Assembly: GCA_044867425.1 (NCBI GenBank)
Contig: JBIOUX010000164.1
Span: forward strand, 1,367 to 65,366
Direction: 5' to 3'
DNA from: Acidimicrobiia bacterium
GTDB lineage: Bacteria > Actinomycetota > Acidimicrobiia > IMCC26256 > BP-133
Length of the DNA stretch: 64,000 nucleotides
In this document: one piece after another, positions 23,646-62,706 of the stretch
Layout: the number at the start of each line of letters is the position of its first letter
How positions within the stretch are numbered: the stretch's first letter is position 1
Position numbers and translations under genes: made by a program
Notes under the pieces: generated by a model
Told to the model about the DNA's origin: nothing
The model's database searches: none
Seen by the model: only the letters and a program-made list of their open reading frames with translations

Positions 23646-23663
23646 CGAATGACGGTTCAGTCA
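23646..23663. promoter_or_regulatory. Operator-like 18-bp imperfect palindrome CGAATGA-CGGT-TCAGTCA
   Basis: It lies in the divergent intergenic region between 22715-23623 (-) and 23701-24282 (+). It is a member of the recurring motif family. Confidence 0.5.
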
Positions 23664-23700
23664 GCTAGGCTCCCGTGCACGGAGGATCGACGGGGGACTC

Positions 23701-24282
23701 ATGACGCCTGATCTCACTGACAAGGCCTGTGATCTGCTGCACCAGCTGCGGCTGCGCGGTTTCCTGGCCGCCACGGGCAACGCCATCGAAGCCGAACTGG
23801 CCGACGCCGGGTGTGTGGCGCTGCGGGGTTCCAACCTGGCGCTGACGCCGGCCGGGCGGGAGGGGCACGCCGCCTGGGCCCGCCTGCCCGAAGGATCACC
23901 GGCGGAGGAAGCCGGTCGCACCGCCTACCAGCGGTTCATGCCGCTGAACACCGAGTTGCTCAAGATCTGTACCGCCTGGCAGCTCCGGGACGACGGCAGC
24001 CCCAACGACCACTCCGACCGGGCCTACGACTTCGGTGTCCTGGAGCGCCTCGACCGGCTCCACGAGCGGATCGCCCCGCTCGTCGCCCGCCTGGCTGAAA
24101 CGGTGCCCCGTTTCGCCGCCTACCCGGAGCGCCTCGTCGCCGCCCTGGACCGGATCGCCGACGACCGCCAGTGGATGGCCTCACCCCGGTGCGACTCCTA
24201 CCACACCGTCTGGATGCAGATGCACGAGGACCTCCTCTGTGCCATCGGGGCGTCGCGGGCCGACGAACCCGAACCTACCTAG
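23701..24282 (+). CDS. Hypothetical protein, possible N-terminal winged-helix
   Basis: 193-aa ORF with protein-like composition. No motif was recognised. Confidence 0.55.
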   Translation: MTPDLTDKACDLLHQLRLRGFLAATGNAIEAELADAGCVALRGSNLALTPAGREGHAAWARLPEGSPAEEAGRTAYQRFMPLNTELLKICTAWQLRDDGSPNDHSDRAYDFGVLERLDRLHERIAPLVARLAETVPRFAAYPERLVAALDRIADDRQWMASPRCDSYHTVWMQMHEDLLCAIGASRADEPEPT

Positions 24283-24312
24283 ACCGACCCGAGGACCAAG
24301 GGGGACCGACAC

Positions 24313-25740
24313 ATGGCTGGACGGACCATCAAGCGGCACCGGCGCTGGGGACGCGGTGCCGGCGCCCTGGCCCTCCTGATGGGTGGTGCGATCTCGGTCT
24401 GGCCCGGGGCCCGGGTCTCGGCCCAGACCGGCGATTCCGGCGCCGCCCGCAGCCTGGTGGCCGCCGCCTCGGCCCAGGGCATCCGGATGACCTACACCGT
24501 CCCCGACCTCTTCGTGGTGACCGAGTTCATGGACGGCGGCGGGCCCGTGGCCCAGGCCACCGTCGACTCCACCGGCCGGGCCATCAGCTTCGCCTCCCTG
24601 CCCTACCCGGGGGAGAACGCCGTCACCGCCCCCGGCCTGGCCTCATTCGCCACGGGCGTCCCGGTGCCCAACTACCCCTTCTACGCCCGGGCCGACCATC
24701 CGGTGCAGCCCAGCTCGGAGGTGAAGGACCCGAGCGGTACCTATTCCATGGTGGCCACCGCCGACCAGGGCAAGGCGGCCGGGTCGGCCGACTTCCTCTT
24801 CGGCGGGGCCGAGGCGCCGGTGTCGGGATCGGCCGCCGACGCCTCCGGGCTCCTCGAGGGCAACGGGGTGAAGGTGGAGGCGGTCTCGGTGAGCAAGGGT
24901 CTGGATCTCGGGCAGGGGGCGCTGCGGATCGCCTCCGTCACCAGCCGCTCGGTCACGACCTACACGGCCGGGGCGGAGAAGCCGGAGACGAAGACCGAGC
25001 TCGTCATCGAAGGGGCCAAAGTCGGCGACCAGCCCGTGACCATCGGGCCCGACGGTGTGCACCCCGGCGGCCAGACGGTGCCCGTCCCCATCGGGAGCGG
25101 GACGGACAGCCTCAACCAGGCGCTCGCCCAGGCCGGCATCAGGGTCAAGACCATCGAGTTCTCCGAATTCGAGGGCGGCGCCGCCGGCGACGCGCTCGAG
25201 ATCACCGTGAAGCACCCCATTCCGGGGGCGGAGAACGTCCAGGGCACCTTCGTCTACCAGATGGGTGGAGCCACCTCCTATGTCGCCTTCGGCGAGGGCG
25301 GGATGCCGGGTCTCCCGGTCGACGACGTCCCGCTGCCGGACGGAGGTTCCGGGAACGGTCCGGTGAGCGCGGAGTCTCCGCCGGCGTCGTCGACGACGTC
25401 GGGTGGGGACGCGACCGGCGCCGCTCTGGATGTGTCGCTGCCCGCCGGCGTGGCCGGGGAGCCCTTCCCGCTGGCCCTCAGCAACGGGTCGCTGACGCTG
25501 GGCGCCGGCACCTCCTCCCAGCTGGCCGCCCCCGGTGGGGCCGGCTCCGGGGTGACGTCGGGGTCGGGGTCGTACGCCGCGCCAGCCGTGGGCGGCAACG
25601 CCCAACCGGTGGTGCTGGCCCGGGACTTCTCCGACACCACCAAGGCGCTGTTCGCCATCCTGGCGATAGCCGGGGCCGTGCTGGTGTCGTCCTCCGCGCT
25701 GTGGCGCTTCCGGGGGGTGTCGGCCCTGTGGAAGGGGTGA
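24313..25740 (+). CDS. Secreted protein with C-terminal TM anchor, unknown function
   Basis: 475 aa. It has the signal peptide GAGALALLMGGAISVWPGARVSAQ, a Gly/Ser/Ala-rich distal region, and the C-terminal helix ALFAILAIAGAVLVSSSALW. Confidence 0.65.
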   Translation: MAGRTIKRHRRWGRGAGALALLMGGAISVWPGARVSAQTGDSGAARSLVAAASAQGIRMTYTVPDLFVVTEFMDGGGPVAQATVDSTGRAISFASLPYPGENAVTAPGLASFATGVPVPNYPFYARADHPVQPSSEVKDPSGTYSMVATADQGKAAGSADFLFGGAEAPVSGSAADASGLLEGNGVKVEAVSVSKGLDLGQGALRIASVTSRSVTTYTAGAEKPETKTELVIEGAKVGDQPVTIGPDGVHPGGQTVPVPIGSGTDSLNQALAQAGIRVKTIEFSEFEGGAAGDALEITVKHPIPGAENVQGTFVYQMGGATSYVAFGEGGMPGLPVDDVPLPDGGSGNGPVSAESPPASSTTSGGDATGAALDVSLPAGVAGEPFPLALSNGSLTLGAGTSSQLAAPGGAGSGVTSGSGSYAAPAVGGNAQPVVLARDFSDTTKALFAILAIAGAVLVSSSALWRFRGVSALWKG

Positions 25741-26426
25741 GCCGGCTGCGGGCCCAGTGGGACTGGGTCGCCGGGTTCGTTCTCATGGGCCTGGGCGCGG
25801 TCCTGGTGGTGGTCAGCACCATCAGCGTGAGCGGTTCCCGCTACGCCAGCGACCAGCTCTCCTACATCGTGTCCGGCGGGCTCGGCGGTCTCCTGCTGCT
25901 CGGCGCCGGGGCCACCCTGGTCATCACCGCCGGGCTGTCGGACGAATGGCGCAAGCTGGACCGGCTGGAAGACGCCCTGCCCTACCCCAAGATCCCGGTA
26001 CCGAGCGTGCGGGTGCTCGTCCGGCGCGGCCGTCTGATCGCCGGCGCCGGGATGCTGCTGACGGCCATCTTCCTGGCCATCGCCTGGAGCCGGGCGTCGG
26101 GCGAGGCCGACCCCGAACCGGGGCTGCAGGCTCTGGGGACCGGCGTCATCGGCCTGCTCATCGGGAGCCTCATGGCGGCCTTCGCCACGCTGGGACTGAA
26201 GCGCCGCATCCAGCTCCGCAAGAACCGCCTGTTCGCGCCCTGGCTCGTGGAGAAGCTCGTGTCCGCGCCATCTCCGGCGCGGAACGGACGCGTCCTCGTG
26301 GCCACCGGCCTGACCCGATACCACCACTCCGGCTGCCCGGCCATCACCGGGCTGGCCACCCGCGAGGTGAACCGGAGCCAGATTCCCAAGGAGCTGGAGC
26401 CATGCGAACTCTGCGAGGTGGAATAG
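25737..26426 (+). CDS. Membrane protein, DEWRKLDR family (copy 2 of 3), extended with two further TM helices and a C-terminal Cys/His motif
   Basis: The GTG at 25737 overlaps the upstream stop (GTGA). It has SYIVSGGLGGLLLLG and LSDEWRKLDRLE, and a C-terminal YHHSGCP...CELC. Confidence 0.65.
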   Translation: MSRLRAQWDWVAGFVLMGLGAVLVVVSTISVSGSRYASDQLSYIVSGGLGGLLLLGAGATLVITAGLSDEWRKLDRLEDALPYPKIPVPSVRVLVRRGRLIAGAGMLLTAIFLAIAWSRASGEADPEPGLQALGTGVIGLLIGSLMAAFATLGLKRRIQLRKNRLFAPWLVEKLVSAPSPARNGRVLVATGLTRYHHSGCPAITGLATREVNRSQIPKELEPCELCEVE

Positions 26427-27976
26427 CACTGGACCGGAGCTTCTTCCGCACGGCCTCGGCTGTGCTGGCCGGGCTGGCGCTGACCTCCGGCGCGGCCTGC
26501 GGGTCACGCCTCGACACCCAGGCGCTCGAGAAGTCCAACGGCGCCTTCACGCGCGTGGCGGACACCGGCGGTGCGCCCGCCGTCCCGGGTCAGAGCCAGC
26601 TGACGCTCGAGGACGCCGCCGGTGCCGCTTCCTCCGAGCCGGGCTCCACCCCGGCCGCCGCCTCTACCGCCGTGGCGGTGGGGAGTCCGGCCGCGGGCCG
26701 GGTGCCGGCCGCCTCGGCCAGCCAGTCAGCGGGTGCCACCGGCGCCGTACCCTCAGCCGGGGGACAGCGAGCGGCCACGTCAGCCGCGGCGGCGTCGGGT
26801 GGGCCGGCCACGCCCACGCCCAGTGCGCCCGTCCCCGGGACGCCGGCGCCGGCCGCGCCGGGGGCCACCAAGTCCGAGATCCTCCTCGGCTCCTTCGGCT
26901 CCGAGTCCGGCATCCTGGGGGCGGTGAGCGGGCCGGCCCCGCCCGCCATCCGGGCCTGGGCCGCCTACATCAACACACAGGGGGGCGTGAACGGCCACCC
27001 GGTCAAGGTCATCCTGGGTGACGACAACGCCAACCCTTCCCGGAGCCAGGCGATCGTCCGCCAGATGGTCGAGCAGGACAAGGTCATTGCCTTCCTCAAC
27101 GAGTACTCCTTCGCGCTCGACTCGGTAATGCCCTACCTGGAGCAGAAGAAGATTCCCATCGTCGGCAGCATCGGCGGCCACCCCATCGGGGACCACTCCC
27201 CCATGATGTTCAACCCCCTGCTCGGCCCTGACGTGGGCCAGGCCTGGGGCTTCATCCTCAACACCCTCACCCAGGCGCCGGGCAAGAAGAAGATCGGGAT
27301 CCTGTACTGCCGGGAGGCCAGCATCTGCGCCGTCCTGAAGGACGGCTTCAAGAAGCTCCTGCCCTACGAGGGACTGGAGGTCGTCTACGAGGCGTTCGTG
27401 TCGCTGGCCCAGCCCGACTACACGGGCGAGGTCCTCCAGGCCCAGCGGGCCGGGGCGGACGTCATCCTTCCCCTCATCGACACGGCGGCCCTGAACCGGG
27501 TGGTGGCGTCGGCCCGGCGCCAGAACTACGAGCCCGCCTTTGTGGGGACCTACAACCTCAACCAGGACCTGATCTACAACTTCTCGGAGAACCTGGAGGG
27601 GATCTTCCTCACTTCCCGGATGGGGCCGTGGGACACATCGCCGCTCAACCAGACGTACCGAGACGCCATGGCCCGCTACCAGCCCAAGGCCGCCCGCGGC
27701 GACCTCGGTGCGGGCGTGTTCGTGGCCGGGAAGCTGCTCTCCGACAAGATCGGGCCCTTCATTCAGGAACCGCCCAGGACCGAGCAGATCCTCGAGGGCC
27801 TGTACGCGCTCCACAACGAGACCCTCGGCGGGCTCCTGCCCGGAGTGGGCTTCAAGCGCGACTCCGAGCACGTGGACACCAACCAGTGCATCATCCCGGT
27901 GAAGTTCACGGGCGGGAAGTTCGTGGCCCATCCGAAGTTCGTGTGCGCCCCGAATTGGAAGCCGGTCGGCACCTGA
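26402..27976 (+). CDS. ABC transporter substrate-binding lipoprotein (Leu/Ile/Val-type, type 1 periplasmic-binding fold), copy 1
   Basis: ATG at 26402. The lipobox is LALTSGAACGS, followed by ~130 aa of Ala/Pro/Ser/Gly-rich linker and then a LivJ-like core. It is highly similar to the protein starting at 62766. Confidence 0.85.
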   Translation: MRTLRGGIALDRSFFRTASAVLAGLALTSGAACGSRLDTQALEKSNGAFTRVADTGGAPAVPGQSQLTLEDAAGAASSEPGSTPAAASTAVAVGSPAAGRVPAASASQSAGATGAVPSAGGQRAATSAAAASGGPATPTPSAPVPGTPAPAAPGATKSEILLGSFGSESGILGAVSGPAPPAIRAWAAYINTQGGVNGHPVKVILGDDNANPSRSQAIVRQMVEQDKVIAFLNEYSFALDSVMPYLEQKKIPIVGSIGGHPIGDHSPMMFNPLLGPDVGQAWGFILNTLTQAPGKKKIGILYCREASICAVLKDGFKKLLPYEGLEVVYEAFVSLAQPDYTGEVLQAQRAGADVILPLIDTAALNRVVASARRQNYEPAFVGTYNLNQDLIYNFSENLEGIFLTSRMGPWDTSPLNQTYRDAMARYQPKAARGDLGAGVFVAGKLLSDKIGPFIQEPPRTEQILEGLYALHNETLGGLLPGVGFKRDSEHVDTNQCIIPVKFTGGKFVAHPKFVCAPNWKPVGT

Positions 27977-29076: not shown

Positions 29077-29100
29077 GGGGTCTCCGGGGTAAAGGCGCCA
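29077..29100 (+). repeat. Left terminal inverted repeat (IR-L); may extend inward to about 29126
   Basis: GGGGTCTCCGGGGTAAAGGCGCCA matches the reverse complement of 40114-40137 at 23 of 24 positions. The inner part ends ...CCACTAACGG and contains the tnpA stop, as in Tn3-family IRs. Confidence 0.8.
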
Positions 29101-29121
29101 AAACGGCGGAGAATGGTTCCA

Positions 29122-29790
29122 CTAACGGCGCTTCGCTGACCTGAGGGGGCGGCGACCGCGTCGGTTGAGGACGCCGGCGACGTCGATGGTGTGGGTGCCG
29201 TAGGGATTGATCGCCTCAAAATGGCCGGGGCTGGTATGGGCGATGGCTTCTTCGCTGATCTCGTGGCCGTCGGCCCGTTCGGCATCGATGGCGTCTTGGA
29301 TGTAGCCGGTGGTGGAGAGGATGCAGGCGTTGGTCACCAGGGTGAGGCAGAGGGCCTGGGCGGTCTGGTCGTCGTGGTGGTGGTAGCGGAGGTCTCCGGA
29401 GTGGGCGAAGGCGAGGAAGCGGCGGAGGTCGTTGAGGGACTCGCCCTTGTTGAGCTGCCGGCCGATCCGCCGGCGGAAGGCCTCGTCGGTGAACCAGCGC
29501 AGGGCGTGGACGGTGCGCAACAGCTTGCCGTGTTCGAGGAGCGCCTTGGCGAGGGGTGCTGGCGGGACCCGGCCTGAAGCTTGGCCACGAGCAGGGAGGC
29601 CGAGACGTAGCCGAGTTTGAGCGAGCCGGCGATGCGCAGGAGTTCGTCCCAGTGCTCGGCGATGAGATCGATCTGGGCGTGGTGGTCGAGGAGCGGGCCT
29701 GCCCGGGGCCAGCCGGTGTAGCGACCCGGCGGATGGGGGCGCCAGAGCTGCCGCTCGGTGAGTTTGGCGATCCGGGGAGCCGATGCGTCG
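29122..29790 (-). pseudogene. tnpA: Tn3-family transposase, C-terminal ~220 codons only, with a frameshift
   Basis: Frame B covers 29122-29556 (AKALLEHGKLLRTVHALRWFTDEAFRRRIGRQLNKGESLNDLRRFLAFAHSGDLRYHHHDDQTAQALCLTLVTNACILSTTGY...). Frame A covers 29557-29790 (APRIAKLTERQLW...IAEHWDELLRIAGSLKLGYVSASLLVAKLQAGSRQHP). The shift is at the G-run 29553-29556. There is no homology upstream of about 29790. Confidence 0.8.
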
Positions 29791-30004
29791 CCAGGATGCA
29801 GGCATCCTTCTCATCTCACCCTTTGGTCACGCCCGCGATCGTTGCGGCACCTGATGGAATCCGGTGCGCTACGTCATCCGTGCGCCGTCTCGGTGGTGTG
29901 GTATTCGATGCCGCACCAGGACCGGCCTTCGACAGCAAAATGGAGCTCCGAAGGTTTACCCCTGGTAGGGGGAATCGCGACACCTGAACGACCCCAGAGG
30001 AGGA

Positions 30005-30870
30005 GTGGGTTCCCCGGTCATGAAAGAGGCTCCCGGTCCTAATCAGGCTGACGGTGTGGACGGCGAGCAGAAACACGCAAGGGTTCCTCAACGCCGCAAG
30101 TGGCCGTTCGTCGTCGGCAGTGGCGTTCTCCTCGCCACCGTCGCTGCCTGGGGCTGGGATGTCTGGCTCCCTAACTTTCGTCCGGGCCTCCGGGCGGGTG
30201 AGGAGTATGGGATTGACGTCTCCAACCACCAGGGAAGCATCGATTGGGGTCGTGTAGCCCGGGACGGCATCTCGTTCGCGTACATCAAGGCCAGTGAAGG
30301 CGGGGATTTCATCGACCGCCGCTTCGCCGACAACTGGGCTGGGCCAGCGAGGCGGGGATCGCACGTGGCGCCTACCACTTCTACACCCTCTGCACGCCAG
30401 GGAACCTCCAGGCCTGGAACTTCCTCCGGACCGTGCCGGTTGACTCCAACTCACTGGCGCCCGCGGTGGACTTGGAACTCAAGGGCAACTGTCGGGAGCG
30501 ACCTGACGGCGTCACTGTGGAACGTGAACTCACGACATTCCTGCGTAGCGTCGAGTCCACGATGGGCAAGGTGATGGTCCTCTACGTCGGTGACGACTTT
30601 GAGGACCGGTACCCCGTCCGCACATCGTTCCAGCGGCCCCTCTGGCACCGACGCTTCCTACGCCGGCCCGATGTCGACGACTGGGTCATCTGGCAGGTAC
30701 ACGGTTCCGCGCGTGTCGACGGCGTGAAAGGTCGTGTGGATTTCAACGTGATGCGCCAACCCCCAAGACGCCGAACTGCCCCACCAAGTAGGCCTCGCGC
30801 TCGTGTATCGTCCCTCCAACCCCTCCTCAACAGAAAAGCACGCTCGCAACCACGACTGTCGACGAGCTGA
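30005..30870 (+). pseudogene. GH25 muramidase (lysozyme) with N-terminal TM anchor, disrupted by a -1 frameshift
   Basis: Frame 2 reads GIDVSNHQGSIDWGRVARDGISFAYIKASEGGDFIDRRFADNWAG. The continuation EAGIARGAYHFYTLC...APAVDLELKG...WVIWQVHGSARVDGVKGRVDFNV is in frame 1. The junction is at GGG 30341-30343. Confidence 0.75.
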
Positions 30871-31342
30871 CCTTTCGTGACGCAGCTCTGATCAGTCGTT
30901 TCTCTTCAGAGTCTCGAGAATCATCAACGAAGAACCCGGACGCGGAATCCAAAGAAATACAGGCACCGCTCTTCGAATCGATGGCAGCGTTGCGACTCGT
31001 GACCTTCCATCCTTGGGCACGAAGGGGCTCAAGGATGGCTGCCATACCTTCTTCAGCGCTCCTGAGCCCCTTGAATGAGAGAACGACCAACCGAGTCTTT
31101 TGCTCAGCTGAGCCGCCCCCTTGGACGCTCTCGTTAAGAACGATCTCCGCCGAAGAAGGAAGAGGGCCGAGGATGCTGAGCTTCGGCGCTGGGTGCGTAC
31201 GATTCCACAGCCCCATGGCCACCACAAAGAAGACAAGAGACAGTGTGACGACGGCTAGGATCATCCATAATATTCGACGGGCAGCACTGCCCCGCCTCGC
31301 CTTACGACCCTCGGTGTGGTGCGCGACCGCCGAACTGTTCAC
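30827..31342 (-). CDS. Membrane-anchored hypothetical protein (171 aa) in lower-GC block
   Basis: The ORF has the N-terminal TM helix ILWMILAVVTLSLVFFVVAMGLW. It is last in the Rhs-strand gene string. One 60-nt line here counts only 28 G+C. Confidence 0.5.
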   Translation of the reverse strand: MNSSAVAHHTEGRKARRGSAARRILWMILAVVTLSLVFFVVAMGLWNRTHPAPKLSILGPLPSSAEIVLNESVQGGGSAEQKTRLVVLSFKGLRSAEEGMAAILEPLRAQGWKVTSRNAAIDSKSGACISLDSASGFFVDDSRDSEEKRLIRAASRKVSSSTVVVASVLFC

Positions 31343-31629
31343 GACTTGTACTCCTTACTCCGCGAGATCTGGTTGGATAGGCGGTCATAGCTCTTGCCTC
31401 GGGGTTTGGCGGCCTTCCCGTTGAATTTGGTGGCCCGCAGATCCGAAATCCTGCCCTCACCAAAGCCATAGGCGATGAATGCCTCGCGGTCAGACAAGCC
31501 ATACTTGTTCTGGAACTCCGCGAGGTACTCAGCGGCCATAGCGATGGCGAAGCCGGTGTCATAAACAAGCTTCTTACGCGCTGTCCTCGTGTCTATGCCT
31601 GCGAGACGGGCAGCGACGTCGGGACGCAT
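31339..31629 (-). CDS. Hypothetical protein (96 aa)
   Basis: The ORF stop overlaps the next gene's start (ATGA-type overlap at 31339-31342). No motif was recognised. It conflicts with the 31574-31771 ORF over 56 nt. Confidence 0.4.
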   Translation of the reverse strand: MRPDVAARLAGIDTRTARKKLVYDTGFAIAMAAEYLAEFQNKYGLSDREAFIAYGFGEGRISDLRATKFNGKAAKPRGKSYDRLSNQISRSKEYKS

Positions 31630-31771
31630 CTGACCGATTTGCCGCCCAAGAGAGAAGGGGCGTGGTGAGCGCCATTTCGCTGTCAGGCAGAGCGATGAGA
31701 GCTAGGGCGTAGGCAAGAAGACCACCCAATGCGGACAGCAGCACACCGCCTAGATCGCGTTTAGTTGCCAA
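31574..31771 (-). CDS. Possible small TM protein (65 aa)
   Basis: The N-terminal 30 aa are hydrophobic (GGVLLSALGGLLAYALALIAL) and the rest is Arg-rich. It overlaps the neighbouring ORF, so at most one of the two is likely to be real as drawn. Confidence 0.25.
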   Translation of the reverse strand: MATKRDLGGVLLSALGGLLAYALALIALPDSEMALTTPLLSWAANRSDASRRRCPSRRHRHEDSA

Positions 31772-31829
31772 GCTTCACGCGTACTTTCGGTCGAAGGCTG
31801 TTCTGGTTGAATGTGAACCGTAAGCTCAC

Positions 31830-32195
31830 CTAGCCCTTGGCGCAGCTCGGCCCTCTGATGTCGAACGTCCGGCGGTCATCGTCCGAATGTGGAACAGGGA
31901 GCAATTGCCCGATGGCACCATCGACTGCTGTCGCCGACAAGGTCAGACCGTCGGCATCGTTGTCGAAAACCGAGAAAGCAACCGCTCTGCCTGGAGCAAT
32001 ACGCTCACCCCGTGTAGTGGCCATGTCCTCCGGCTGCGCCGAACCGGATTCTCGAACTCTGACCCAGACCTCATGACTGCACTGGTTCGAGACGATCAAT
32101 GTCTTCGCACGATCCCCCGGAAGGCAGGCCGCCAGGGCCGCGCTCGAACACAGACAAAGCGCTATCCGAAACAAGAGCCTCGAGGGTCGAGACAT
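31830..32195 (-). CDS. Lipoprotein (121 aa), candidate immunity protein for the Rhs toxin tip
   Basis: The start MSRPSRLLFRIALCLCSSAALAAC carries the lipobox LAAC. The start codon at 32193-32195 lies 13 nt downstream of the Rhs stop (32209-32211), on the same strand. Confidence 0.55.
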   Translation of the reverse strand: MSRPSRLLFRIALCLCSSAALAACLPGDRAKTLIVSNQCSHEVWVRVRESGSAQPEDMATTRGERIAPGRAVAFSVFDNDADGLTLSATAVDGAIGQLLPVPHSDDDRRTFDIRGPSCAKG

Positions 32196-32208
32196 CAAGG
32201 GAATAGGC

Positions 32209-35200
32209 TCACGCCGAGCTAGTGCCATATCGACGGTTGACGCTGTAGTTCGGTTCGGTTGTCTCGCCTCGGACCTCTGGACAACCACCGCCGCCTCGTG
32301 CTGTGTACGCTTCCCGCTCATACTTGTTCCGGCACCCTGTCCCGCGCTTAGCCGCCTCGATCAGGTACTTGATCCCGAATTTGTCCCCGTACTTCTCCCA
32401 TTGTCCTACGTGAACGAGTTCGTGAGCCAGCAGGGAATCGCACGATCCCCCGCAGAAAATGAAGTGGCCATAGGTGACGGCACCAGCGCCGGGATCGGCA
32501 CTGGGAAGCCGCTTGACGTTTTGCACACAGAACACCGGTTGGCCGCTCTTGCTCCGTGCGCACTCGGTGACGACGCCTCCCGAGTTCGCCACGAGTCGGT
32601 TCCTGGCAAGATTGTCCGTGATGTTTGGTCCCTTCGAGTTGACAGGTTTGCAGGCCTCCCAGATTCCGAAGGGACCTCGCACCTTCCTATACCCGGGGCC
32701 ACATCCGTTCTTGCCCTTGCCTTTGGGGGCGTGGCCGTCGTCGTAGTAGCCGACGGGGTTGGCGGCTGCGTAGAGGTAGCGGTTGCCGGTGAGGGCATCG
32801 ACGCCGAGAGCGAGGTCCAGGCCGCCGGCGACGAAGCTGTCTTCGGTGGTGAATCGGCGGATGCTGGGGTCGTATTGGCGGTCTTTGAGGATGAGCGCTC
32901 TGGTTGTACCAGCGGAGCCGGGTGTGCGGTCGGTGAGGGCGTGCTGGTAGCCGAGGGAGGAGCGACCGTAGCTGGAGCTGGTGGTCTTGCCGGCGCCGCC
33001 GGTCTTGGGTTGGCCGTAGGGGTCGAAGGCGGCCTGTTCGAGCACCACCCCCGTATCGTCGCAGACGGTGCCGACGTTGCCGGCCAGGTCGCCGAGGAGC
33101 CAGTTCCAGGTGGCGGTGGCGTTGCGGTCGCCGGTGGAGGTGCGGTGGGATTCCTGGGCTACTGCTTGGCCGGTGTCGTCGGTGAGGTAGCGGACCATGG
33201 TTTGGCCGGTGCCGTCGGTTTCTTCGGCGAGGGTGTCGCCAGAACCCCAGTAGAAGTAGAGGGTGGTCTTGGCCGAGCCGCTCTCGAACGGGTCCGTGCG
33301 GGCGATGAGCCCACCATCGGCGTCGTAGACGTAGTTGATGTCGTATTGGTTGAGGGTCTTGTCGTCGTGGCCGGCGGCGTGGCCGGCCGGGTCGTAGCTG
33401 GTGCTTCGAGTGGCCGACGGGTTCGAGGGGCAGCTGAAGACGCTGGTGTAGCCGAAGTAGCGGCTGGTCTCTTCGCCGAGGGCGTCGTACCAGAACTTTT
33501 CGCAGTCGGCCTCGTAGATGAGGCTGGAGTAGACGGTCACTCGGCTGGTGAGCCGCCCATCGGTGAATGTCGAGGTGGCGGTGGTCCGGGTGGAGCCGCT
33601 GCCGGCGGTGGCGCCGGTGCGGGCGATTTCCTGGGTGATGTTGCCGCCGTCGTCGAGGGTGTAGACGGTGTTCTGGGAGCTGTCGGACGTCTCGGCGAAG
33701 GGCGCCACCCAGCTGGTGAGCCGGTTGAGGGCGTCGTAGGCGAACTTGGCCGTCCCGCTGGTGGTCGAGCTGGCCCCGGGCTGACGGAGGGCGACGGCCT
33801 CTTGGGTGCGCTGGCCGCCGTCGTCGTAGAGCACCCCGGTGTGGGAGCGCAGCACGTTGGCGCCCGCATTCCAGGTCAGCGAGGTGGGGGCGCCGTTGCG
33901 CTGGTAGTCCCACGTCCCGGTGAGGGCATTGTTGTTCCGCTGGGCGGTCTTGAGCGCCCCGGAGGGGAAGTAGGCGTTGGTCGATGCCCGGCTACGCCAG
34001 TCCGTCATGGAGGTGAGCCACCCGGCCGGGGAATGGTCGTAGCTGGTGAGCCGCCCGTCCCAGGTGGCGGAGTCGAGGGCGCCGTCGGCTTCGTAGGCGA
34101 AGCTCTGGGTGCGGCTGTAGGAGGTGCCGTTGTCGGGGGAGCGCAGCGTCTGGGTTGAGCTGGTCATCCAGTTGTTGGCCGCCGCGTAGGCGAATGTCTG
34201 GGTCTTCAGGGTGGTGCCGCCGGCGGTGCAGCCGGTCGTGCCGGAGACGGTGCGGGTCACGAGGGGGTTGCCGTCGGCGTCGTAGCCGCTGGTCAGGTCG
34301 CCGGCGCCGTCGGCGTAGTTGCAGGTGGCCAGGGTGGTGCCGGCGGTCTCGTTCTTGGCGACCTCGGACTGGAGGGTGCCGTCGGGATTGTAGACGGAGG
34401 CGACCCGGCGCACGTTGGTGGCGCCGTCCTTGTCGAGCCGTTCGGTCTGCCGTCCCTCGCCGTCGTAGCTGTAGGCCACGGTGTGGCTGGGGTTCTCCGG
34501 GTCCTTGGTCTGGGCGGAGAGCCGGCCGAGGGCGTCGTAGCGGTAGAGCGACTCCAAGGTGGCGCCGGCCCCGGTGGGTTGGGCGGTGCGCACCTGGTTG
34601 CCAGCCTGGTCGTAGCCGACCTCGGCGTCGACCCAGGTGGTGGCCGTCTTGTAGCGGCGGGTGCGGGTCACCTCGGCGAAGGGGCTGTAGGTCTGTTCGG
34701 TGGTGTGGGAGAAGGTGCCGACCTTGCCCGGCCCCTTGGTCTGGAGCGGCTCGCCGTGGGCGTTGTAGGCGTACAGGGTGGTCTGGGTCTGGGTGGCGTT
34801 GGCGATCACCTGCTGCTGGGCCACCGCCCCGGAGGGGGTGTAGGTGAAGGTGGTGCGGGCTCGTTCGTTGGTGGTGTTGCCGGCGGGGGCGTCCACCTGG
34901 GTGACCCGTCCGGCGGTGTCGTAGCCATAGTCGGTCACGGCCCGGTCGATGCTGTTGGCGGTCTGGCCGGGGGCGTCGATCTGCTTGAGCGTCCGGTTGG
35001 GGGTGTAGGCGAAGTTGATCTGGCTACTCGATCGAGGGGTCGTCTCGGCGGTCTTGGCGCCGTCGTCGGCGTAGGTGACGGTGGCGACTCGCCTCGGGTC
35101 GGTGGGGTTGGCGCCGGGCCAGGAGGCTTGGGTCTGCCAGTCGTTGTTGTCGTAGGTCCAGATGGTGGTGAAGTCGTCGGCGACGCTCGGGGTGAGCTGG

Positions 35201-38200
35201 CCCCGGGGGGTCGTGTCCCTGGTCTTGTTGTCGTTGGCGTCGAAGGCCGACGTGATCCGGTTCCCCTTGGGATCGACCATCTCGACGAGGTTGTCGCGGT
35301 CGTCGTAGCGCCACTTGGTGATCCGGTTGTCCCGGTCGGTTTCCTTCACCGTGGGGCCGTAGGGGCTGTACTGGAACGTTTTGGTCTTGGCGGCGGCGTC
35401 GGTGATCCGAGTGGGGGCTCCGGTGCGGTCGTAGGCGCCGTTGGCGGCATCGGCTGTGTCGCCGTAGGTGGTCAGGTCGTCGGCGGGGTAGAGGCCGTCG
35501 TTGGCGGTTTCGCCCCGGGGGCCGTCGACGGTCTTGAGGGCTCCGGAGGTGTAGTAGGCGAAGGTGGTCGTGCGGTCGCCGGTGCACACGCCGGTGCTGC
35601 TGGAACAGGAGGGGGCCTGCGCGGCGCCGTCCGAGCGGTAGCGCTCGATGACGCTGCGGAGGTTGCCGGTGGCCGCGTCGGGGTCGAAGTCCACTACCCG
35701 CTGGGCGGTGTCACCGGAGGCGTAGGTGGCCTTGAGGAGGTCGGCGACCATGTAGCAGTAGCCTTCCTCGGTGACGTTGGCGTTGCCGGGGGCGGGATCG
35801 GTGCAGCCCGACGGGTGGCGCCAGGCGGCGTCGTAGCGGTAGGCGAGCTTGTGGGTCACGGCCACCTTGGGGGCCCCGGTGGGCAGGTCGTTGCGGCCGG
35901 GGTCGTTGGGGGCGGGTTCGGTGATCTCCACCAGGAGACCCAAGTCGTTGTACTTCATCTTCGTCTCGTTGCCGAGCCCGTCCTTCTTGGAGTAGAGGCG
36001 GTTCTCCTCCCAGGAGAACTGGCGGGTCACCGCCCCGGCGCCGAAGCCGGCGTCGATGATGGCGATGATGTTGCCGCCGGCGATGCGCCGGTCTGCCCCC
36101 GTGGGTTGGATCGCCCCCCGGCCCGAGGTGCGGTAGGTGACCTGGTCGGCCGCCGGGGAGGTCACCACCGTGTCCTGCTGGCCGGTGGTCGGATCCGGGG
36201 TGCCGTAGGCGAAGGCCCACGTCTTGGGGGTGGGCTGGGGGCTCTGGCGCCGGTCGGTCAGCGTGGTCATCTGGGCGGAATAGCCGCTGCCCGTGTAGGC
36301 GAAGCGGGTGGTGTTGCCCCGCCCGTCCTTGACCGAGGTGAGCTGCCCGCTGGTGTAGGCGAACTCGGTGGTGCGGGCGGCGTCACTGCCGCTCTGAGCG
36401 TTTTCGTTCACCTTCCACAGGCGGCCGTTGGCGTCGTAGACGAAGTCCACCCACCGCTCGTAAGAGCGGGTGGCGCCGCTCACCGGCTCCACGTCGGTCA
36501 CCCCCTGCAGGGTGGTGATCCGCGACAGGCGCCCTGTCGTGGCGTCCCAGGTCAGGCTGGCCACCACGCCGTTGCGGTTGTGGCTGATCGAGCTCAGGCG
36601 CACCTGGCCGGCGGCCAGGTTGTAGTCGAAGGTCAACGTGTCGCCGCGGCGGTCCCGGATCGAGGTGACCCGCCACGTATTGGTGGTCAGTCCCAGGGCG
36701 GGCTTGACCACCTTGAGGTTCTCCGCCTTGTAGATCACCCCGTCGGGTCGGACGAGCTCGTAGGCCGTGACCACCCCGCCGCTGACGACCTCCCGAACTC
36801 GCAGGCTCACCCCCGGCGGGGAGTCCCACCGTGATCCGATGCCGCCCTTGCGGATGAACCGCTGGGTGGTCCCGTCGCCGTCGGTGAACTCCAGCAGGTA
36901 GCCGGCGATGGTCCCTGCCCCGTCGACCACGGTGGCCGACGCCGCGGTCATCGGCGCGGCCACGTCGAAGTCCTCCAAGGCGCCTTCCACGCCGTCGAGG
37001 CCGGCGTCGAGGTCACTCACCGACAGCGACCAGCCCTGGCTCAGCCCGTTGTCGTGCAGCACGCTCGACTGGCGCTGGGAGTTGTAGACGTGGCGGATCA
37101 CCGTATTCAGCCCCTGGTTGGGGATCGTGGCGTCGTCGAAGCTGGCCGTCAGGTTGCCCGAACGCAGCTGCACGTAGCCCGTTCCCGACGAGCCGAGGGG
37201 GAACGACTTGTAGGGGGCGAACTGCTCCAGGCCGACCTGGTCGGACTGGGCCACCATGTCGGGCAGCAGGGTGGGGGAGAGCGTGACCGGATCGGCGGTG
37301 GAGTCGATGCAGATCGGCCCGTAGACCTGATCGGTGGTGTTCTTGTTGCCGGCCTTGTCGACGGTGGCGACGTGGAACCAGTAGGTGCCGTCGGCGTTGA
37401 CCGGCACCGTGTAGGTGGCGCTGAGCCCGGTGGTGTCCACCGTGTTGTCGGGAGCGGCCGCCTGGTCGTTGTTGAACACCCACGAGTAGCCCAGCACCCC
37501 CGAGGTGACGTCCGCGCCGGCGAGCCAGTTCATGCTGATCGTCCGGATCGAGGTGCACAAGTACTTGGCGTGGCTACTGGTGGTGATGGTCGGCGCGGTC
37601 GGCGGGGTGCTGTCCACCCAGATCCCGTAGTGGCGGGCAGAATCGGACCACCAGCCGGCGTTGTCCTTGGCCCGGGCGTGGACGTACCACTGCCCGTCGG
37701 CCGTGATCGAGGTGCTGTTGGTGTAGCTACCGGTGCTGTTCACCGTCGCGCCGGGGAGCGTGGAGGAGGACTGGTCGACTGATGCCGAGTACCCGGCGAT
37801 GCCGCTGGTGTCGCCCGACGGACCGCTGATGGCGGCGGCAACCGTCCGGCTCGAGTACCACTGCGCGCCCGGGGGGCTCTCCACTCCATGGCTGGAGCTC
37901 GTCAGGGTCGGTGTCCCCGGTTTGACGGTGTCGACGGTGAAGCTGGCCCAGACCGGTCCGCTGCGCTGGCGGAAGTCGTCGGCTTCTGCCGACCAGCTGT
38001 GGTAGCCCTGGCCGAGGGCGCCGGTGGTGACGCAGCCCCGGCCGTTGTTGCCCAGCGTGGCGCTGTTCCCGGACCAGACCTGGGTGCCGCCGCTGTTGTA
38101 GACCCGGAAGACGACGTAGCCGGTGTCGGCGCTGCCGGGGTTGCCCAGGTTGGGGTCCGTCCATGTCGCGCACAGCTGCGGCGTGGTGGTCGTCTGGTAG

Positions 38201-39726: not shown

Positions 39727-39907
39727 GTCGCAACTCGCCCTTCGTCAGAAATACCGCCGATGACGTCGGCGCAGGCGAAGGGCGCACTTGAAAACGCCCC
39801 GAAGATTCAGGGCCGACTGCTGGACTTCGAGGCGGTTCTCAAGTCGCCGGCGGGTCGTGCCGATGGGTCGGCTTCTGCAGCGGTCAGCTGAGCGGCGGAA
39901 CCGGCTG

Positions 39908-39934
39908 CCTTACGTCCTTACGTCCTTACGTCCT
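39908..39934. repeat. 8-bp tandem repeat CCTTACGT x3 (+CCT)
   Basis: Read directly from the sequence at 39908-39915, 39916-39923 and 39924-39931. It lies about 180 bp upstream of the Rhs start codon. Confidence 0.9.
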
Positions 39935-40004
39935 GTGGGCTGGGCCAACCCGTCTCGCCGTCCGCGACTCACTCCTCAGCGGGCCGACGAAATGCGGCGC
40001 TTCC

Positions 40005-40112
40005 CCCCTCTTCGCGATGATCACGCACTACCGCCACCGCGACGACCAGACCGCCCAGGTCCGCTGCCTCACCCTGGTGACCAACGCCTGCATCCTCTCC
40101 ACCACCGGCTAC
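40005..40112 (+). pseudogene. tnpA: Internal ~100-bp fragment of Tn3-family transposase fused to IR-R
   Basis: It translates as PLFAMITHYRHRDDQTAQVRCLTLVTNACILSTTGY. Bases 40040-40112 match the reverse complement of 29302-29374 at 71 of 73 positions. Confidence 0.8.
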
Positions 40113-40113
40113 G

Positions 40114-40137
40114 TGGCGCCGTTACCCCGGAGACCCC
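40114..40137 (-). repeat. Right terminal inverted repeat (IR-R), inner part deleted
   Basis: The reverse complement is GGGGTCTCCGGGGTAACGGCGCCA, which matches IR-L at 23/24 positions. Confidence 0.8.
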
Positions 40138-40142
40138 ATCTC
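40138..40142. repeat. Right copy of 5-bp target-site duplication (ATCTC)
   Basis: Identical to 29072-29076. Confidence 0.8.
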
Positions 40143-40367
40143 ACCGTGGACGAGCTGCTGGGCCAGCCTCCATCAGAGGCGAAGGAGGTGGTGGCCTTCC
40201 GCCGCGACCGCCGGGAGGAGTACCTGGGCCTGCGCCTGCCCGACTCCTGGACGGGCCAGCCGGTTCCTGTTCCCATCGAGGTGGGCACCGCCCGGCTCCG
40301 CACCGGCGACTTCCTCCGGGTCGACGGCGACGCCGGGGTGGTCTCCGTCCTGGCCTGCGCCGGGTAG
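40143..40367 (+). pseudogene. 3' part of the transposon-interrupted gene
   Basis: It reads TVDELLGQPPSEAKEVVAFRRDRREEYLGLRLPDSW...IEVGTARLRTGDFLRVDGDAGVVSVL, which is collinear with ...HTELHAALAGGEGPGTDEIERRHRAHQDCLALDLPE...VKVGTEMAVSGSTVTVDGSAGEVQL of the 19544 paralogue. It is in frame with 29076. Confidence 0.7.
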
Positions 40368-40371
40368 CGCG

Positions 40372-40986
40372 TCAGCGCAGCCAGGGCTCCTTCAGGTCGA
40401 GGTATTCATCGATCGTGCTGGCGGACGTCCACTCGCTGAACAGGGCCTGGGCCTCGGCGGGCATCTCCTTGGCCTCGCCCCGGCGGGCGTCGGCCTCGGA
40501 GGTGAAGTAGACGAAGTCGGTGTAGGACCCGTCGGCGTGCAGGGCGACGACGTCGCCCAGGACGTCGGGCCGGTGCCGGGCCATGATCGCCTCGGCCTCT
40601 CCCAGGCGCTTCTCCAACTCGGCCATCTTCTCCGGGTCGGTCACCCGGCCCCGCATCACCTGCACGAACTTTGCGTCGTTCGAGCCACCCCCGCGCATGG
40701 TCGTGACCTGAACGCTCTCCTGGAACATCGGGCTCTCGATGCACTTCTCCGTCTCGGCCCACCAGGCGCCCTGTTCGTCACGGCTGCTGTTGCGCTGAGC
40801 GGCGTCCTCGGACTCGAAGCGGGCCATGAGGACGAACCGACCGTCGCCGGTGATGCCTCCCGTGCTCCCGAGAAAGCCGATGGCGCCAGGACGCAGCTCG
40901 GCCTCCCACCGGTCAGCCTGGCGGAGGAGGCCTTCTCGATCGACGACGTTTCCCGTAATCACCTGGATGAACAAGGTCGCCTCCAT
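40372..40986 (-). CDS. Hypothetical protein, two tandem ~100-aa alpha+beta (ABM/Dabb-like) halves
   Basis: ORF with the start chosen at MEATLFIQV. There is internal similarity between the two halves (FIQVITGNV...RFESEDAAQ and FVQVMRGRV...FTSEADARR). Confidence 0.55.
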   Translation of the reverse strand: MEATLFIQVITGNVVDREGLLRQADRWEAELRPGAIGFLGSTGGITGDGRFVLMARFESEDAAQRNSSRDEQGAWWAETEKCIESPMFQESVQVTTMRGGGSNDAKFVQVMRGRVTDPEKMAELEKRLGEAEAIMARHRPDVLGDVVALHADGSYTDFVYFTSEADARRGEAKEMPAEAQALFSEWTSASTIDEYLDLKEPWLR

Positions 40987-41485: not shown

Positions 41486-41534
41486 CGGTTCCTCCCTTGG
41501 TACGGATTGACCCCATTTTGCCGGTTCCCTATAC

Positions 41535-41552
41535 TGAATGACGGATCAGTCA
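41535..41552. promoter_or_regulatory. Operator-like 18-bp palindrome TGAATGA-CGGA-TCAGTCA
   Basis: It lies 17-29 bp upstream of the start of the small-membrane-protein/ABC permease operon. Confidence 0.5.
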
Positions 41553-45166: not shown

Positions 45167-45194
45167 GGCCGACGATCGCGACACAGGAGGGCCC

Positions 45195-45980: not shown

Positions 45981-46015
45981 GGGCCGGCGGGCGGGGACAT
46001 GATCGGAGACAAGCG

Positions 46016-46213
46016 ATGACCGTCGGATGGCAGGACCTCGACTCCCTGGTGGACGCCCTGCGGGACGCCAACCCCCGGGTCGACCCGAGGGCGCTGGACG
46101 ACCACCAGTTGAAGGAGCTGGCCGAGCAGCTCGAGGGCTTCGACCCCGGGAGCACCACGCCGGGCCCAGGCGATTTCGAGGCCATGCGGGCCATGTGGCA
46201 CTGGGGTGTCTGA
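46016..46213 (+). CDS. IscX/YfhJ-like small acidic protein (65 aa)
   Basis: MTVGWQDLDSLVDALRDANPRVDPRALDDHQLKELAEQLEGFDP...MW is collinear with the remembered E. coli IscX pattern (W-x-D, AL-x-DA-x-P-x-x-DP, LE-x-FD, C-terminal W). Confidence 0.55.
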   Translation: MTVGWQDLDSLVDALRDANPRVDPRALDDHQLKELAEQLEGFDPGSTTPGPGDFEAMRAMWHWGV

Positions 46214-46790
46214 GGAGATGGCGGTGGTGACGAGGGCTGTTCCCGGCATCGACGAGGGCTGGATCCGGGCCGTCCTCTTCGACCACGGCATTGACGACTG
46301 GGTGGATCTGGGGCCGGACCCCCTGCGTCGGCGCTACGCCGGGGACGTCTACGCCCAGCAGGTGGCGGCGACCTACCAGTGCTGGAAGTGGCTGTCCGAC
46401 CGGATGGGGACCGACCTTGACCAGCCGCCCGCTCTGGCCGAGCCCGCCGAGCCGCTGGCCGCGGCGCTGGCCGCCGGCGACTGGACCGAGCTGATGGCCG
46501 TCCTGTTGACGGTGGGCCGGGCCCAGTCGCTGCTCTTCGCCGAGATCGCCCGCCAGGGGGACGACACCACCCGCCGGGGGTTCGACCGCCCGGCCCGGGA
46601 CTGCGCCGGCCATGCCGCCCTGGGGTACCTGGAGCTGCGCCGGGGTGCCTTCACCGACGCCGCCCGGGCCGGCGAGTGCCTCGCCCGGCTGGTGCCGGCC
46701 ACCCGTCGCTGGCTGGAGACCCTCGACCCCGCCGTGGCCGACCGCTGGACAACCGGCGTCCAGCCCCTGCTCCACAGCCTCGGCCTGTAA
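46206..46790 (+). CDS. PaaC-like degenerate partner of the diiron subunit
   Basis: ARDCAGHAALGYLELR aligns with ARDEVGHTALGYSNLR of the 45195 protein, but the Glu ligand is replaced. The protein is helical, and the start overlaps the upstream stop. Confidence 0.55.
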   Translation: MSEEMAVVTRAVPGIDEGWIRAVLFDHGIDDWVDLGPDPLRRRYAGDVYAQQVAATYQCWKWLSDRMGTDLDQPPALAEPAEPLAAALAAGDWTELMAVLLTVGRAQSLLFAEIARQGDDTTRRGFDRPARDCAGHAALGYLELRRGAFTDAARAGECLARLVPATRRWLETLDPAVADRWTTGVQPLLHSLGL

Positions 46791-54456: not shown

Positions 54457-54480
54457 CGAATGAGCAGTCAGTCGGTCAGT
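54457..54480. promoter_or_regulatory. Operator-like motif CGAATGA-GCAG-TCAGTC(GGTCAGT), with a 4-nt reiteration relative to the 61015 site
   Basis: It lies between the P450 stop (54511) and the acyl-CoA synthetase start (54418). Confidence 0.5.
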
Positions 54481-61014: not shown

Positions 61015-61032
61015 CCGAATGAGCAGTCGGTC
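61015..61032. promoter_or_regulatory. Operator-like motif CGAATGA-GCAG-TCGGTCA
   Basis: It lies between the TetR stop (61059) and the ACAD start (61007). On the coding strand it abuts the GGAGG ribosome-binding site. Confidence 0.5.
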
Positions 61033-61058
61033 AGTTTCCGGGCCAGACTCTAACGGTG

Positions 61059-61706
61059 TTAGGGAAGGGCGTCAACGCCTTCGATCCGGGCCGCCAGCCC
61101 CTCCAGCAGGGCCCGGCAGGCCAGCTCGAAGCGCTCGTCCTCGTCGACGGCGTCGCGCTCGAGGGCGAGCCGCAGGTCGTCATACCCCTCGGCGGGCAGC
61201 TCGGCCCTCCACGCCGCCGCCGGAGCGTTGAGGCCATAGAGCACCGAGCCGGTGCAGAAGGCCTCCAGGGCGTTGATGAGGGTGATCTGGTAGGCCGGGG
61301 ACACGCCGGCGGCCGTGAGCCGCCGCGTGGCGTAGTCGTAGGTGGCCGACCCGGCCCGGCGGTTGTAGCGGCCGAAGACCAGAGGCAGCAGGTTGGGGTG
61401 GGCCAGCAGGGCCTGCCGGTAGGAGCGGGCCATCTCCATCAACCAGTCGACCCAGCCGGCCGTGTCGTCCTCCAGGGGCCGCAATTCGGCGAAGGCCAGC
61501 GTGGCCACCCCGTCGAGGATCTCCTCCTTGTCGCGGAAGTGGTGGTAGAGCGAGGCCCCCCGCAGGCCAAGGGCGTCAGCCAGGCGCCGGATGCTGAAGG
61601 CTTCCAGCCCTTCGGCGTCGATGATGGCCAGGGCCTCCTCGACCGCCCGGCGCTGGAAGCTGGTGAACCGCTTGGGTCGCTCCACGACGGGCATTCTCCC
61701 TCTCAT
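61059..61706 (-). CDS. TetR-family transcriptional regulator
   Basis: The N-terminal HTH is FSIRRLADALGLRGASLYHHFRDKEEIL. 215 aa. Confidence 0.9.
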   Translation of the reverse strand: MRGRMPVVERPKRFTSFQRRAVEEALAIIDAEGLEAFSIRRLADALGLRGASLYHHFRDKEEILDGVATLAFAELRPLEDDTAGWVDWLMEMARSYRQALLAHPNLLPLVFGRYNRRAGSATYDYATRRLTAAGVSPAYQITLINALEAFCTGSVLYGLNAPAAAWRAELPAEGYDDLRLALERDAVDEDERFELACRALLEGLAARIEGVDALP

Positions 61707-61725
61707 GGTGCCCGCGCACTGCTAT

Positions 61726-62571
61726 TCACCGGGTGGCGGTGGCCAGCAGGTGCCCGGTGGAACCGAGCATGGAGGGCTCAGACTCCAGCAGGCGCAGCAC
61801 CTCGAGCAGGTGGGACCAGCGTCTGGGGGCGGCCGCCCTGGCCTCGAGGTCGCCGAGCAGGAGCCCCGGGCCCTCTACGGCGACGACGGACACGCCGGCG
61901 AACCCCGCTTCGGCCACCTCGGAGGCAAGCTCGTCGGGATGGTGGAAGAAGGCAGTGGTGAACAGCCCCGCCTGCCGTTCCGGGTTGACGTGGGTGCCCG
62001 CCGCCATGGTGTGGCGGATGGCCGTCCACCGCTGATACCACTGGTCGTCATCCATGCGGCGCCCGAGGTTGTCGAGCACGGCGGCGAAGCGGCTGATGCC
62101 GGCGGCGACCAACACGCCGTCCGGGCGGAGTACCCGGCGGGCCTCCTGCAGGCACCGCAACCGGTCGGCCCGGCCGGTGAGGTGGTAGAGGGGTCCGAGC
62201 AGCACGACGGCGTCGGCGTAACGGTCGGGACGCTCGATGGCCCGGGCATCACCGACGTCGGCTCGTAGGGAGACTCCCCGTTCGGCGGCCAGCTCGGCGG
62301 CCTGGTGCACATGAAGCTCCACCGCGTCGAACAGCTCGACGTCGTAGCCCTGCTCCGCCAGCCAGACCGCATACCGCCCCGGACCGCCGCCCACGTCGAG
62401 CACTCGCCCCGACCCCGGTAGGTGGCGGGCGAGCACATCGACGGTCCGCTCGAACTCCAGCCGGCCGACGGCGGGGCCGACGAGGCGGTCGGCCTCGCGC
62501 CGGGCGCCGTAGTAGTGGGCGATCTCAGGGTCCAGCTGATACTCGGGAGGCATGACCCGCGATGGTGGCAT
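61726..62571 (-). CDS. Class I SAM-dependent methyltransferase
   Basis: VLDVGGGPGRYAVWLAEQGYDVELFD is SAM motif I. The start is uncertain; the Met at 62569-62571 was chosen. Confidence 0.8.
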   Translation of the reverse strand: MPPSRVMPPEYQLDPEIAHYYGARREADRLVGPAVGRLEFERTVDVLARHLPGSGRVLDVGGGPGRYAVWLAEQGYDVELFDAVELHVHQAAELAAERGVSLRADVGDARAIERPDRYADAVVLLGPLYHLTGRADRLRCLQEARRVLRPDGVLVAAGISRFAAVLDNLGRRMDDDQWYQRWTAIRHTMAAGTHVNPERQAGLFTTAFFHHPDELASEVAEAGFAGVSVVAVEGPGLLLGDLEARAAAPRRWSHLLEVLRLLESEPSMLGSTGHLLATATR

Positions 62572-62688
62572 GCCGGCGAACGGACGGGCCCGGGAATTTC
62601 CCGGGGTTCGGGCGCTACGGCGGAGCGATCCCCAGCGCATCTTTACGCGTACAGAAAAAGTGGTTGACATTCTCATGGTGGGCGCGGT

Positions 62689-62706
62689 TGACTGAGGATT
62701 CAGTCA
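62689..62706. promoter_or_regulatory. Perfect 7-4-7 palindrome TGACTGA-GGAT-TCAGTCA
   Basis: It lies in the divergent region between the methyltransferase/TetR genes (-) and the SBP copy 3 gene (+). Confidence 0.55.

Follow-up and report, generated by a model that had tools for sequence, protein, structure and literature searches.

A recurring 18-bp palindrome as a candidate repressor operator of a catabolic gene island in an Acidimicrobiia bacterium

Results

The stretch of 64,000 nucleotides analysed here (the window; ~71% GC), from an Acidimicrobiia bacterium (contig JBIOUX010000164.1, positions 1,367 to 65,366), carries an island of uptake and catabolic genes in which an 18-bp palindromic motif, here called P2, recurs in front of one transcription unit after another. 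The island's uptake genes encode three LivK-type lipoprotein binding proteins, a fused LivH/M-type permease and an ATPase, and its genes for coenzyme A (CoA) activation are those of two acyl-CoA ligases. Its breakdown genes encode three acyl-CoA dehydrogenases (ACADs), an enoyl-CoA hydratase, a MaoC-like hydratase, P450, Rieske, luciferase-like and PaaA-like oxygenases, and DUF7065/7064 proteins. Exact protein matches assign the window to an uncultured Acidimicrobiia genome, assembly GCA_044866285.1. A preliminary description of the window had reported P2 at five positions and proposed as its binder the TetR-family regulator encoded at 61059-61706, here called TetR1. Our analysis places seven P2 sites in the window, listed below with the transcription units behind them; ACAD1 denotes the first ACAD gene of the operon 61007-54511, and TetR2 a 169-aa paralogue of TetR1 encoded just outside the window.

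P2 site 1, 12770..12787, CGAATGAGCGCTCGTTCA: 19 nt 5' of the MaoC-like hydratase gene 12807-13580 (+)
P2 site 2, 16934..16951, AGACTGAACGTTCGTTCA: flanked by two divergent units, the enoyl-CoA hydratase gene 16117-16884 (-) and an operon at 16975-21265 (+) that encodes a DUF7065/7064 protein, an acyl-CoA ligase and a PEP-utiliser
P2 site 3, 23646..23663, CGAATGACGGTTCAGTCA: between the DUF7065/7064 gene 22715-23623 (-) and an operon opening with a 193-aa gene, 23701-24282 (+), followed by two unknown proteins and binding protein 1
P2 site 4, 41535..41552, TGAATGACGGATCAGTCA: directly adjoining a predicted -10 box, ahead of the permease operon 41569-46790 (+), which encodes a small membrane protein, the fused permease, the ATPase and a PaaA-like protein
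P2 site 5, 54457..54474, CGAATGAGCAGTCAGTCG: 5' of an operon running from 54418 down to ~51252 (-), which encodes an acyl-CoA ligase and binding protein 2
P2 site 6, 61016..61033, CGAATGAGCAGTCGGTCA: 8 nt 5' of the ACAD1 ATG, beside the ribosome-binding site; operon 61007-54511 (-), which encodes ACAD1, a luciferase-like monooxygenase, a KshA-like Rieske protein, two further ACADs and a P450
P2 site 7, 62689..62706, TGACTGAGGATTCAGTCA: between the methyltransferase-TetR1 operon (-) and the operon of binding protein 3 and TetR2 (from 62772, +)

Sites 1 and 2 had escaped the first reading of the sequence. The five sites reported there are all present, four of them exactly where they had been placed and the remaining one starting at 61016 rather than 61015. 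Two finer points of the same description are borne out by the letters: the site at 62689-62706 is a perfect 7-4-7 palindrome, and the site at 54457 equals that at 61016 with a 4-nt reiteration, a duplication of ACTG that is absent from the orthologous acyl-CoA ligase site in the related locus L107. The location of the motif in intergenic DNA just 5' of genes also holds for the enlarged set, as all seven sites fall inside the non-coding 6% of the window and the labels of the neighbouring genes agree with Pfam. An eighth site, TGACCGAATATTCAGTCA, lies ~900 bp past the right end of the window, before an operon for a P450 and a luciferase-like monooxygenase.

The recurrence of P2 far exceeds chance. 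With up to three mismatches allowed, the pattern originally proposed has 15 strand matches in the window against 2.7 expected. A matrix built from the five originally reported sites only scores the two additional ones at 22.0 bits (12770) and 19.0 bits (16934), where the chance expectation in the 3.9 kb of non-coding DNA is ~0.005 at 17 bits or more and 0.001 at 20 bits or more, and that for the whole window is 0.01-0.09. Under a matrix of all seven sites these score 23-27 bits (19.6-25 when each is left out in turn), and the next best match in the window reaches 14.6. The strict core GAMYGA-N4-TCRKTC has exactly seven matches in the window and gains only one more when one mismatch is allowed.

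As a control we used 76 loci from other Actinobacteria, 1.35 Mb in all, which surround distant homologues of TetR1. The strict core occurs three times in these unrelated loci, with only one match above 19 bits. At 20 bits or more, this genome together with 14 related loci holds 36 P2 sites, none of them within a gene, and the control holds a single one, which is intragenic. That control match (23.8 bits, Rhodococcus triatomae, locus L023) was rejected as a chance occurrence because it lies inside a ferredoxin-reductase gene. Below the threshold, the window's best matches (27096-27113 and 63466-63483, 13-15 bits) both fall on one conserved piece of coding sequence shared by two binding-protein paralogues, and they are not regulatory sites. 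At three sites in related loci (L112 2452, L112 4510 and L111 9951) the outer TGA of P2 also terminates the reading frame of the gene upstream.

Comparison with loci around orthologues of TetR1, of the DUF7065 protein and of the 193-aa protein shows that P2 is kept 5' of orthologous genes despite rearranged gene orders. TetR1 orthologues (66-100% identity) are encoded in eight genomes; in each of these P2 stands ~10 nt 5' of the ACAD1 start, and the gene order around it varies, with TetR1 before the operon in three genomes and as its last gene in five. Orthologues of the MaoC-like gene have a P2 site directly 5' in L083, L084 and L112. The site at 23646 is identical in L081 and L115, and P2 is found 28-38 nt 5' of the start of the 193-aa orthologue in L083, L111, L112 and L113 as well. 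The site at 41535 is identical in L115, again 5' of the orthologous permease operon, and P2 recurs 5' of orthologues of the P450, of a binding-protein/DUF7065 operon, of the acyl-CoA ligase and of an enoyl-CoA hydratase. This co-occurrence with orthologous operons, together with the site set and the gene content behind it, supports the original proposal of a shared operator linking uptake with beta-oxidation-like catabolism.

At two operons a promoter called by program lies directly 5' of P2.

Predicted promoter TTGACC-17-TATACT, 41507..41535 (+): permease operon; it ends on the first base of P2 site 4
Predicted promoter TTGACG-17-TAGAGT, 61047..61075 (-): ACAD operon, 13 nt 5' of P2 site 6; its -35 block is conserved in the alignment

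Elsewhere, inspection by eye finds -10-like hexamers immediately ahead of P2 or behind it. Depending on the site, P2 overlaps the spacer between -35 and -10 boxes, directly adjoins the -10 box or takes up the initial 20-25 nt of the transcript; such a geometry suggests repression by occlusion or by a roadblock.

The ACAD promoter carries a second palindrome, P1, with the sequence CTAAC-N3-GTTAG, close to the gene for TetR1.

P1, 61050..61062, CTAACGGTGTTAG: probable TetR1 operator, sharing bases with the ACAD promoter (-10 box and spacer) and with the TetR1 stop codon
TetR1, 61059..61706 (-): TetR_N and TetR_C_1 domains; the public gene call starts at 61694; a member of the P2 regulon

P1 occurs once in the window. 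In the extended form (C)CTAAC-N3-GTTAG(G) it is present at all eight orthologous ACAD promoters (the window, L001, L002, L003, L004, L107, L108 and L109), with a further copy at 9912-9924 of L107. When these eight promoters are aligned, conservation is confined to the -35 box, P1 and P2, and the gap between P1 and P2 ranges from 8 to 16 nt; this variable gap marks the two palindromes as separate elements. P1 is a palindrome of 13-15 bp, a typical size for a TetR operator, and TetR1 itself is closest by sequence to ActR and the tetracycline repressors, with FadR absent among its 58 PDB matches.

Distant homologues of TetR1 also bear on its operator. The 76 homologues at the control loci (36-48% identity) have a helix-turn-helix near-identical to that of TetR1, and their upstream regions are enriched in P1-like sequences: a P1 matrix at 13.5 bits or more matches seven of them, 64-76 nt 5' of the gene, against 0.03-0.12 expected, and at 7 bits or more it matches ten against 0.5-1.6 expected. 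The strong matches come from Herbidospora and Mycolicibacter, and exact copies of P1 occur at several Mycobacterium loci (within a few kb) and at Nocardioides and Jatrophihabitans loci. No convincing P2 was found near the same 76 homologues, where a search of 400 nt 5' and 900 nt 3' gave only 11-12 bits, compared with 23-27 bits for the real sites. Since P1 is present in all the orthologous promoters, and homologues sharing the recognition helix have P1-like sites without P2, TetR1 most likely binds P1. The ACAD operon would then be under dual control, with TetR1 acting on P1 and another repressor on P2.

Among known operators, the closest in design to P2 is the FadR box. Bacillus subtilis FadR (YsiA) is a TetR-family, acyl-CoA-responsive repressor with the box WTGAATGAMTANTCATTCAN, from which it is released by long-chain acyl-CoA, and the structure of B. 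halodurans FadR on DNA has its two dimers offset by 4 bp, with each monomer reading ATGA(A/G)T (PMC5397183). P2 has the same architecture, a near-palindrome of 18-20 bp with the form TGAnTGA-N4-TCAnTCA, and it likewise repeats TGA triplets every 4 bp, leaving room for two staggered dimers; it is because of this 4-bp periodicity that the site at 54457 stays good despite its ACTG duplication. Both elements are found at the promoters of genes for acyl-CoA ligases, ACADs and enoyl-CoA hydratases, to which the MaoC-like hydratase is added here, and the box before the regulator gene itself may have its counterpart in L111 and L113, where P2 lies ahead of a FadR-like TetR gene. The two systems differ in that the P2 half-site admits two bases at each of two positions (A/C at 4, T/C at 5) and occurs in a genome of 71% GC, in that the regulon adds ATP-binding cassette (ABC) uptake genes and many oxygenases, in that the candidate binder is only a distant relative of FadR (PDB E-values 1e-9 to 1e-6), and in that the window encodes no FadR-type gene.

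Other TetR-family regulators of lipid metabolism share some features with the island's control and differ in operator sequence. KstR and KstR2, of mycobacterial steroid catabolism, likewise represent TetR-family control of a large island with ACADs, a KshA-like Rieske oxygenase, a P450, hydratases and ligases, and their two regulators with nested regulons can be likened to the arrangement proposed here. No match to the KstR box TnnAACnnGTTnnA was found anywhere in the window, in agreement with the earlier judgement that it does not fit; P2 differs from it in half-sites and spacing, and the core of P1 is AAC-N3-GTT where that of the KstR box is AAC-N2-GTT. DarR of mycobacteria and Rhodococcus and PfmR and SbtR of Thermus are TetR-family regulators of fatty-acid genes that bind overlapping palindromes as a dimer of dimers (PMC10636190, PMC7022988). 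Their operators are also short palindromes with internally repeated triplets, acting as repressing roadblocks at lipid-metabolism promoters, but with other sequences and spacings (ATACT-N4-AGTAT for DarR, TGACYrnnyRGTCA for SbtR). The operators of MftR (T-N2-GGCA-N5-TGCC-N2-A), DarR, PfmR/SbtR and XNR_0706 were all tried, and none fits P2. The site at 16934-16951 contains GAAC-N4-GTTC, the Gram-positive LexA core (Cheo box); this is true of that one site only and is probably a coincidence. No relevant paper turned up when the motif string was looked for in the literature library used.

Discussion

The distribution of P2 raises two separate questions, namely whether the element is a protein-binding site at all and, if so, which protein reads it. 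Its palindromic sequence, its occurrence in several copies between tandem genes and the position of the ACAD site next to the ribosome-binding site would also suit a nucleic-acid structure, such as an attenuator, a terminator or a repeat of the repetitive extragenic palindrome (REP) type, or a chance pattern in AT-richer intergenic DNA. The sites themselves argue otherwise. Twenty distinct sites give the consensus TGAMYGA-N4-TCRKTCA, in which G2, G6 and A7 never vary and 38 of 40 half-sites retain A3, but there is no covariation between the arms, the variable pair at positions 4 and 15 being complementary in only four of the 20; arms that vary independently point to a protein reading two half-sites and not to a hairpin. 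No T-tract, terminator-like match or Rfam family was found, the flanks of the sites are unrelated except in the duplicated pair 54457/61016, and the chance expectation stays far below one even with intergenic base composition. We therefore consider structure or chance a very improbable explanation, and P2 is in our view very probably a repressor operator.

As for the binder, two further candidates from the island and its margin have to be weighed besides TetR1.

193-aa protein, 23701..24282 (+): unnamed family with a winged-helix-like N-terminus and conserved Cys/His residues; a regulon member and minor candidate binder
TetR2, 6831-7340 of L104, corresponding to window coordinates ~64355-64864 (outside the window): 39-41% identical to TetR1

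A TetR1 dimer on P2 would repress the entire island, the operon of TetR1 among the rest. In favour of this reading, Pfam detects no other regulator in the window; one P2 site precedes the methyltransferase-TetR1 operon, another lies beyond the TetR1 stop codon, and in all eight orthologue genomes TetR1 is beside P2 or last in a P2-led operon. Against this proposal, which was that of the preliminary description and which we do not uphold, stand the constant presence of the separate P1 in the same promoters, the P1-like sites (seven of them strong) without P2 at helix-sharing homologues, the ActR/TetR-like rather than FadR-like sequence of the protein, and the occurrence of P2 in L083 and L111-L113 with no such TetR within 20 kb; binding of P2 by TetR1 is accordingly judged unlikely. 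The 193-aa protein has the appeal of position, with P2 standing 28-38 nt 5' of its start in seven of nine loci across 59-100% protein identity. It belongs to a large family of 706 relatives, a few of which NCBI labels as MarR family, and its structure is modelled with confidence (predicted local distance difference test, pLDDT, 90.8) with a winged-helix-like N-terminus whose best, weak fold matches are PadR proteins. Yet it has no Pfam, NCBIfam or PDB sequence match and no significant fold match (best E 0.09, TM 0.27), it shows a single helix between strands where a helix-turn-helix would be expected, and its well-conserved orthologues in L110 and L114 have no P2 above 10 bits within 17.6 kb and 20.6 kb, although P2-less L114 is still rich in the same kinds of catabolic genes. 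Binding of P2 by this protein is judged improbable. TetR2, a truncated paralogue, or another unseen factor is also an improbable binder: the TetR2 gene lies behind the site at 62689 and is followed by a P2 before the P450 gene, in a layout that mirrors the methyltransferase-TetR1-ACAD arm about the perfect palindrome, but L001 and L107, which keep the P450 site, show no copy of it at the corresponding position, and its domain matches are weak.

Two related loci point instead to a FadR-like protein. FadR-like TetRs are encoded at 12595-13260 of L111 and, as an 81% identical orthologue, at 11805-12521 of L113, with PDB matches that include FadR (8sv6, 3whb, 1vi0, 5gp9). In L111 a P2 site lies 53 nt 5' of the gene, and in L113 the gene is the last of an operon that opens with P2. 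These placements, with the likeness of P2 to the FadR box, make a FadR-like TetR encoded elsewhere a candidate binder with close to an even chance of being the right one.

In the model that we favour, P2 would be the operator of a transcriptional repressor over the catabolic island, governing at least 10 transcription units. As P2 overlaps or abuts the promoter or the start of the transcript, a protein bound there would block RNA polymerase. The binder would be a FadR/YsiA-like TetR encoded outside the window, two dimers of which may occupy P2 in staggered registers as on the FadR box, and the effector would probably be an acyl-CoA-type intermediate. For the model as a whole, with P2 as a repressor operator, a FadR-like binder outside the window and TetR1 on P1, we estimate a probability of about 0.5.

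Several observations weigh against this model. The FadR-like TetR is not encoded in the window and its presence elsewhere in the genome is assumed, and the link between such a protein and P2 is drawn from the two related loci only. The Gly and Tyr of the recognition helix shared with FadR occur in many TetR proteins and do not discriminate. TetR1 adjoins P2 or is co-transcribed behind it in eight of eight genomes, as would be expected if it were the P2 binder, and the P1 evidence is phylogenetically clumped, six of the seven strong matches being from Herbidospora. Most of the promoter assignments, moreover, are consensus readings.

A different kind of TetR-family regulator, of the TetR_C_14 type, stands beside the island in L111, L112 and L113 and was considered as a P2 binder. 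It was set aside, having a palindrome of its own, ACACC-T-GGTGT, and no P2 site. This palindrome is conserved between the TetR_C_14 regulator and a tyrosine-phosphatase-like gene (L111 6700-6790, L112 3681-3761 and L113 4527-4609), and is probably the operator of that separate regulator.

Some further features of the island's genes deserve mention in their own right. The 193-aa protein has invariant C90, H104, C164, H168 and H175 and the motif SPRCDSYHTVWMQ.HEDLL, and may be metal- or redox-sensing. The DUF7065/DUF7064 paralogues at 16975-17937 and 22715-23623 are 30% identical and each lies behind a P2 site; a third paralogue, P0192 (62% identical), is recorded beyond the limits of the window on the public contig. 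The motif SGG[IL]GGL...DEWRKLDR[VL]E is common to a set of three small membrane protein paralogues (21297-21584, 25728-26426 and 41569-41940), which have no Pfam or NCBIfam match and one of which is encoded by the first gene of the ABC permease operon. Beside the P2 site at 41535, the open reading frame 41096-41516 (-) was taken as no gene despite its high third-position GC, given its Arg/Gly/Pro-rich product and an internal predicted promoter, so that probably ~550 bp of non-coding DNA lie 5' of the permease operon. Relative to the syntenic locus L115, the window carries an insertion of ~11.8 kb (~29100-41000), containing a Tn3 transposase fragment (29122-29814), a low-GC stretch at 30-32 kb (60% GC) and a gene for a 2505-aa RHS-repeat protein (32209-39726). 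This insertion truncates a PEP-utiliser gene, whose product has 398 aa against 538 aa in L115.

The analysis carries a caution for automated regulon inference, in that the regulator adjacent to the most obvious motif is probably not its binder, and the two-operator ACAD promoter makes the matter directly testable in vitro. Should the 193-aa family prove to bind P2 after all, it would constitute a new transcription factor class for lipid or alicyclic-acid catabolism in soil Acidimicrobiia, and P2 would be a FadR-box look-alike by convergence. Under the favoured model, P2 would extend operators of the FadR-box type beyond the Firmicutes. For the organism itself, the sites outline a coherent regulon of ~35 genes and at least 10 promoters in an uncultured soil lineage of Acidimicrobiia. 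It brings several families of unknown function, namely DUF7065/7064, the PEP-utiliser/Rph-like protein, a family of small membrane proteins and that of the 193-aa protein, into connection with uptake and with CoA-dependent catabolism.

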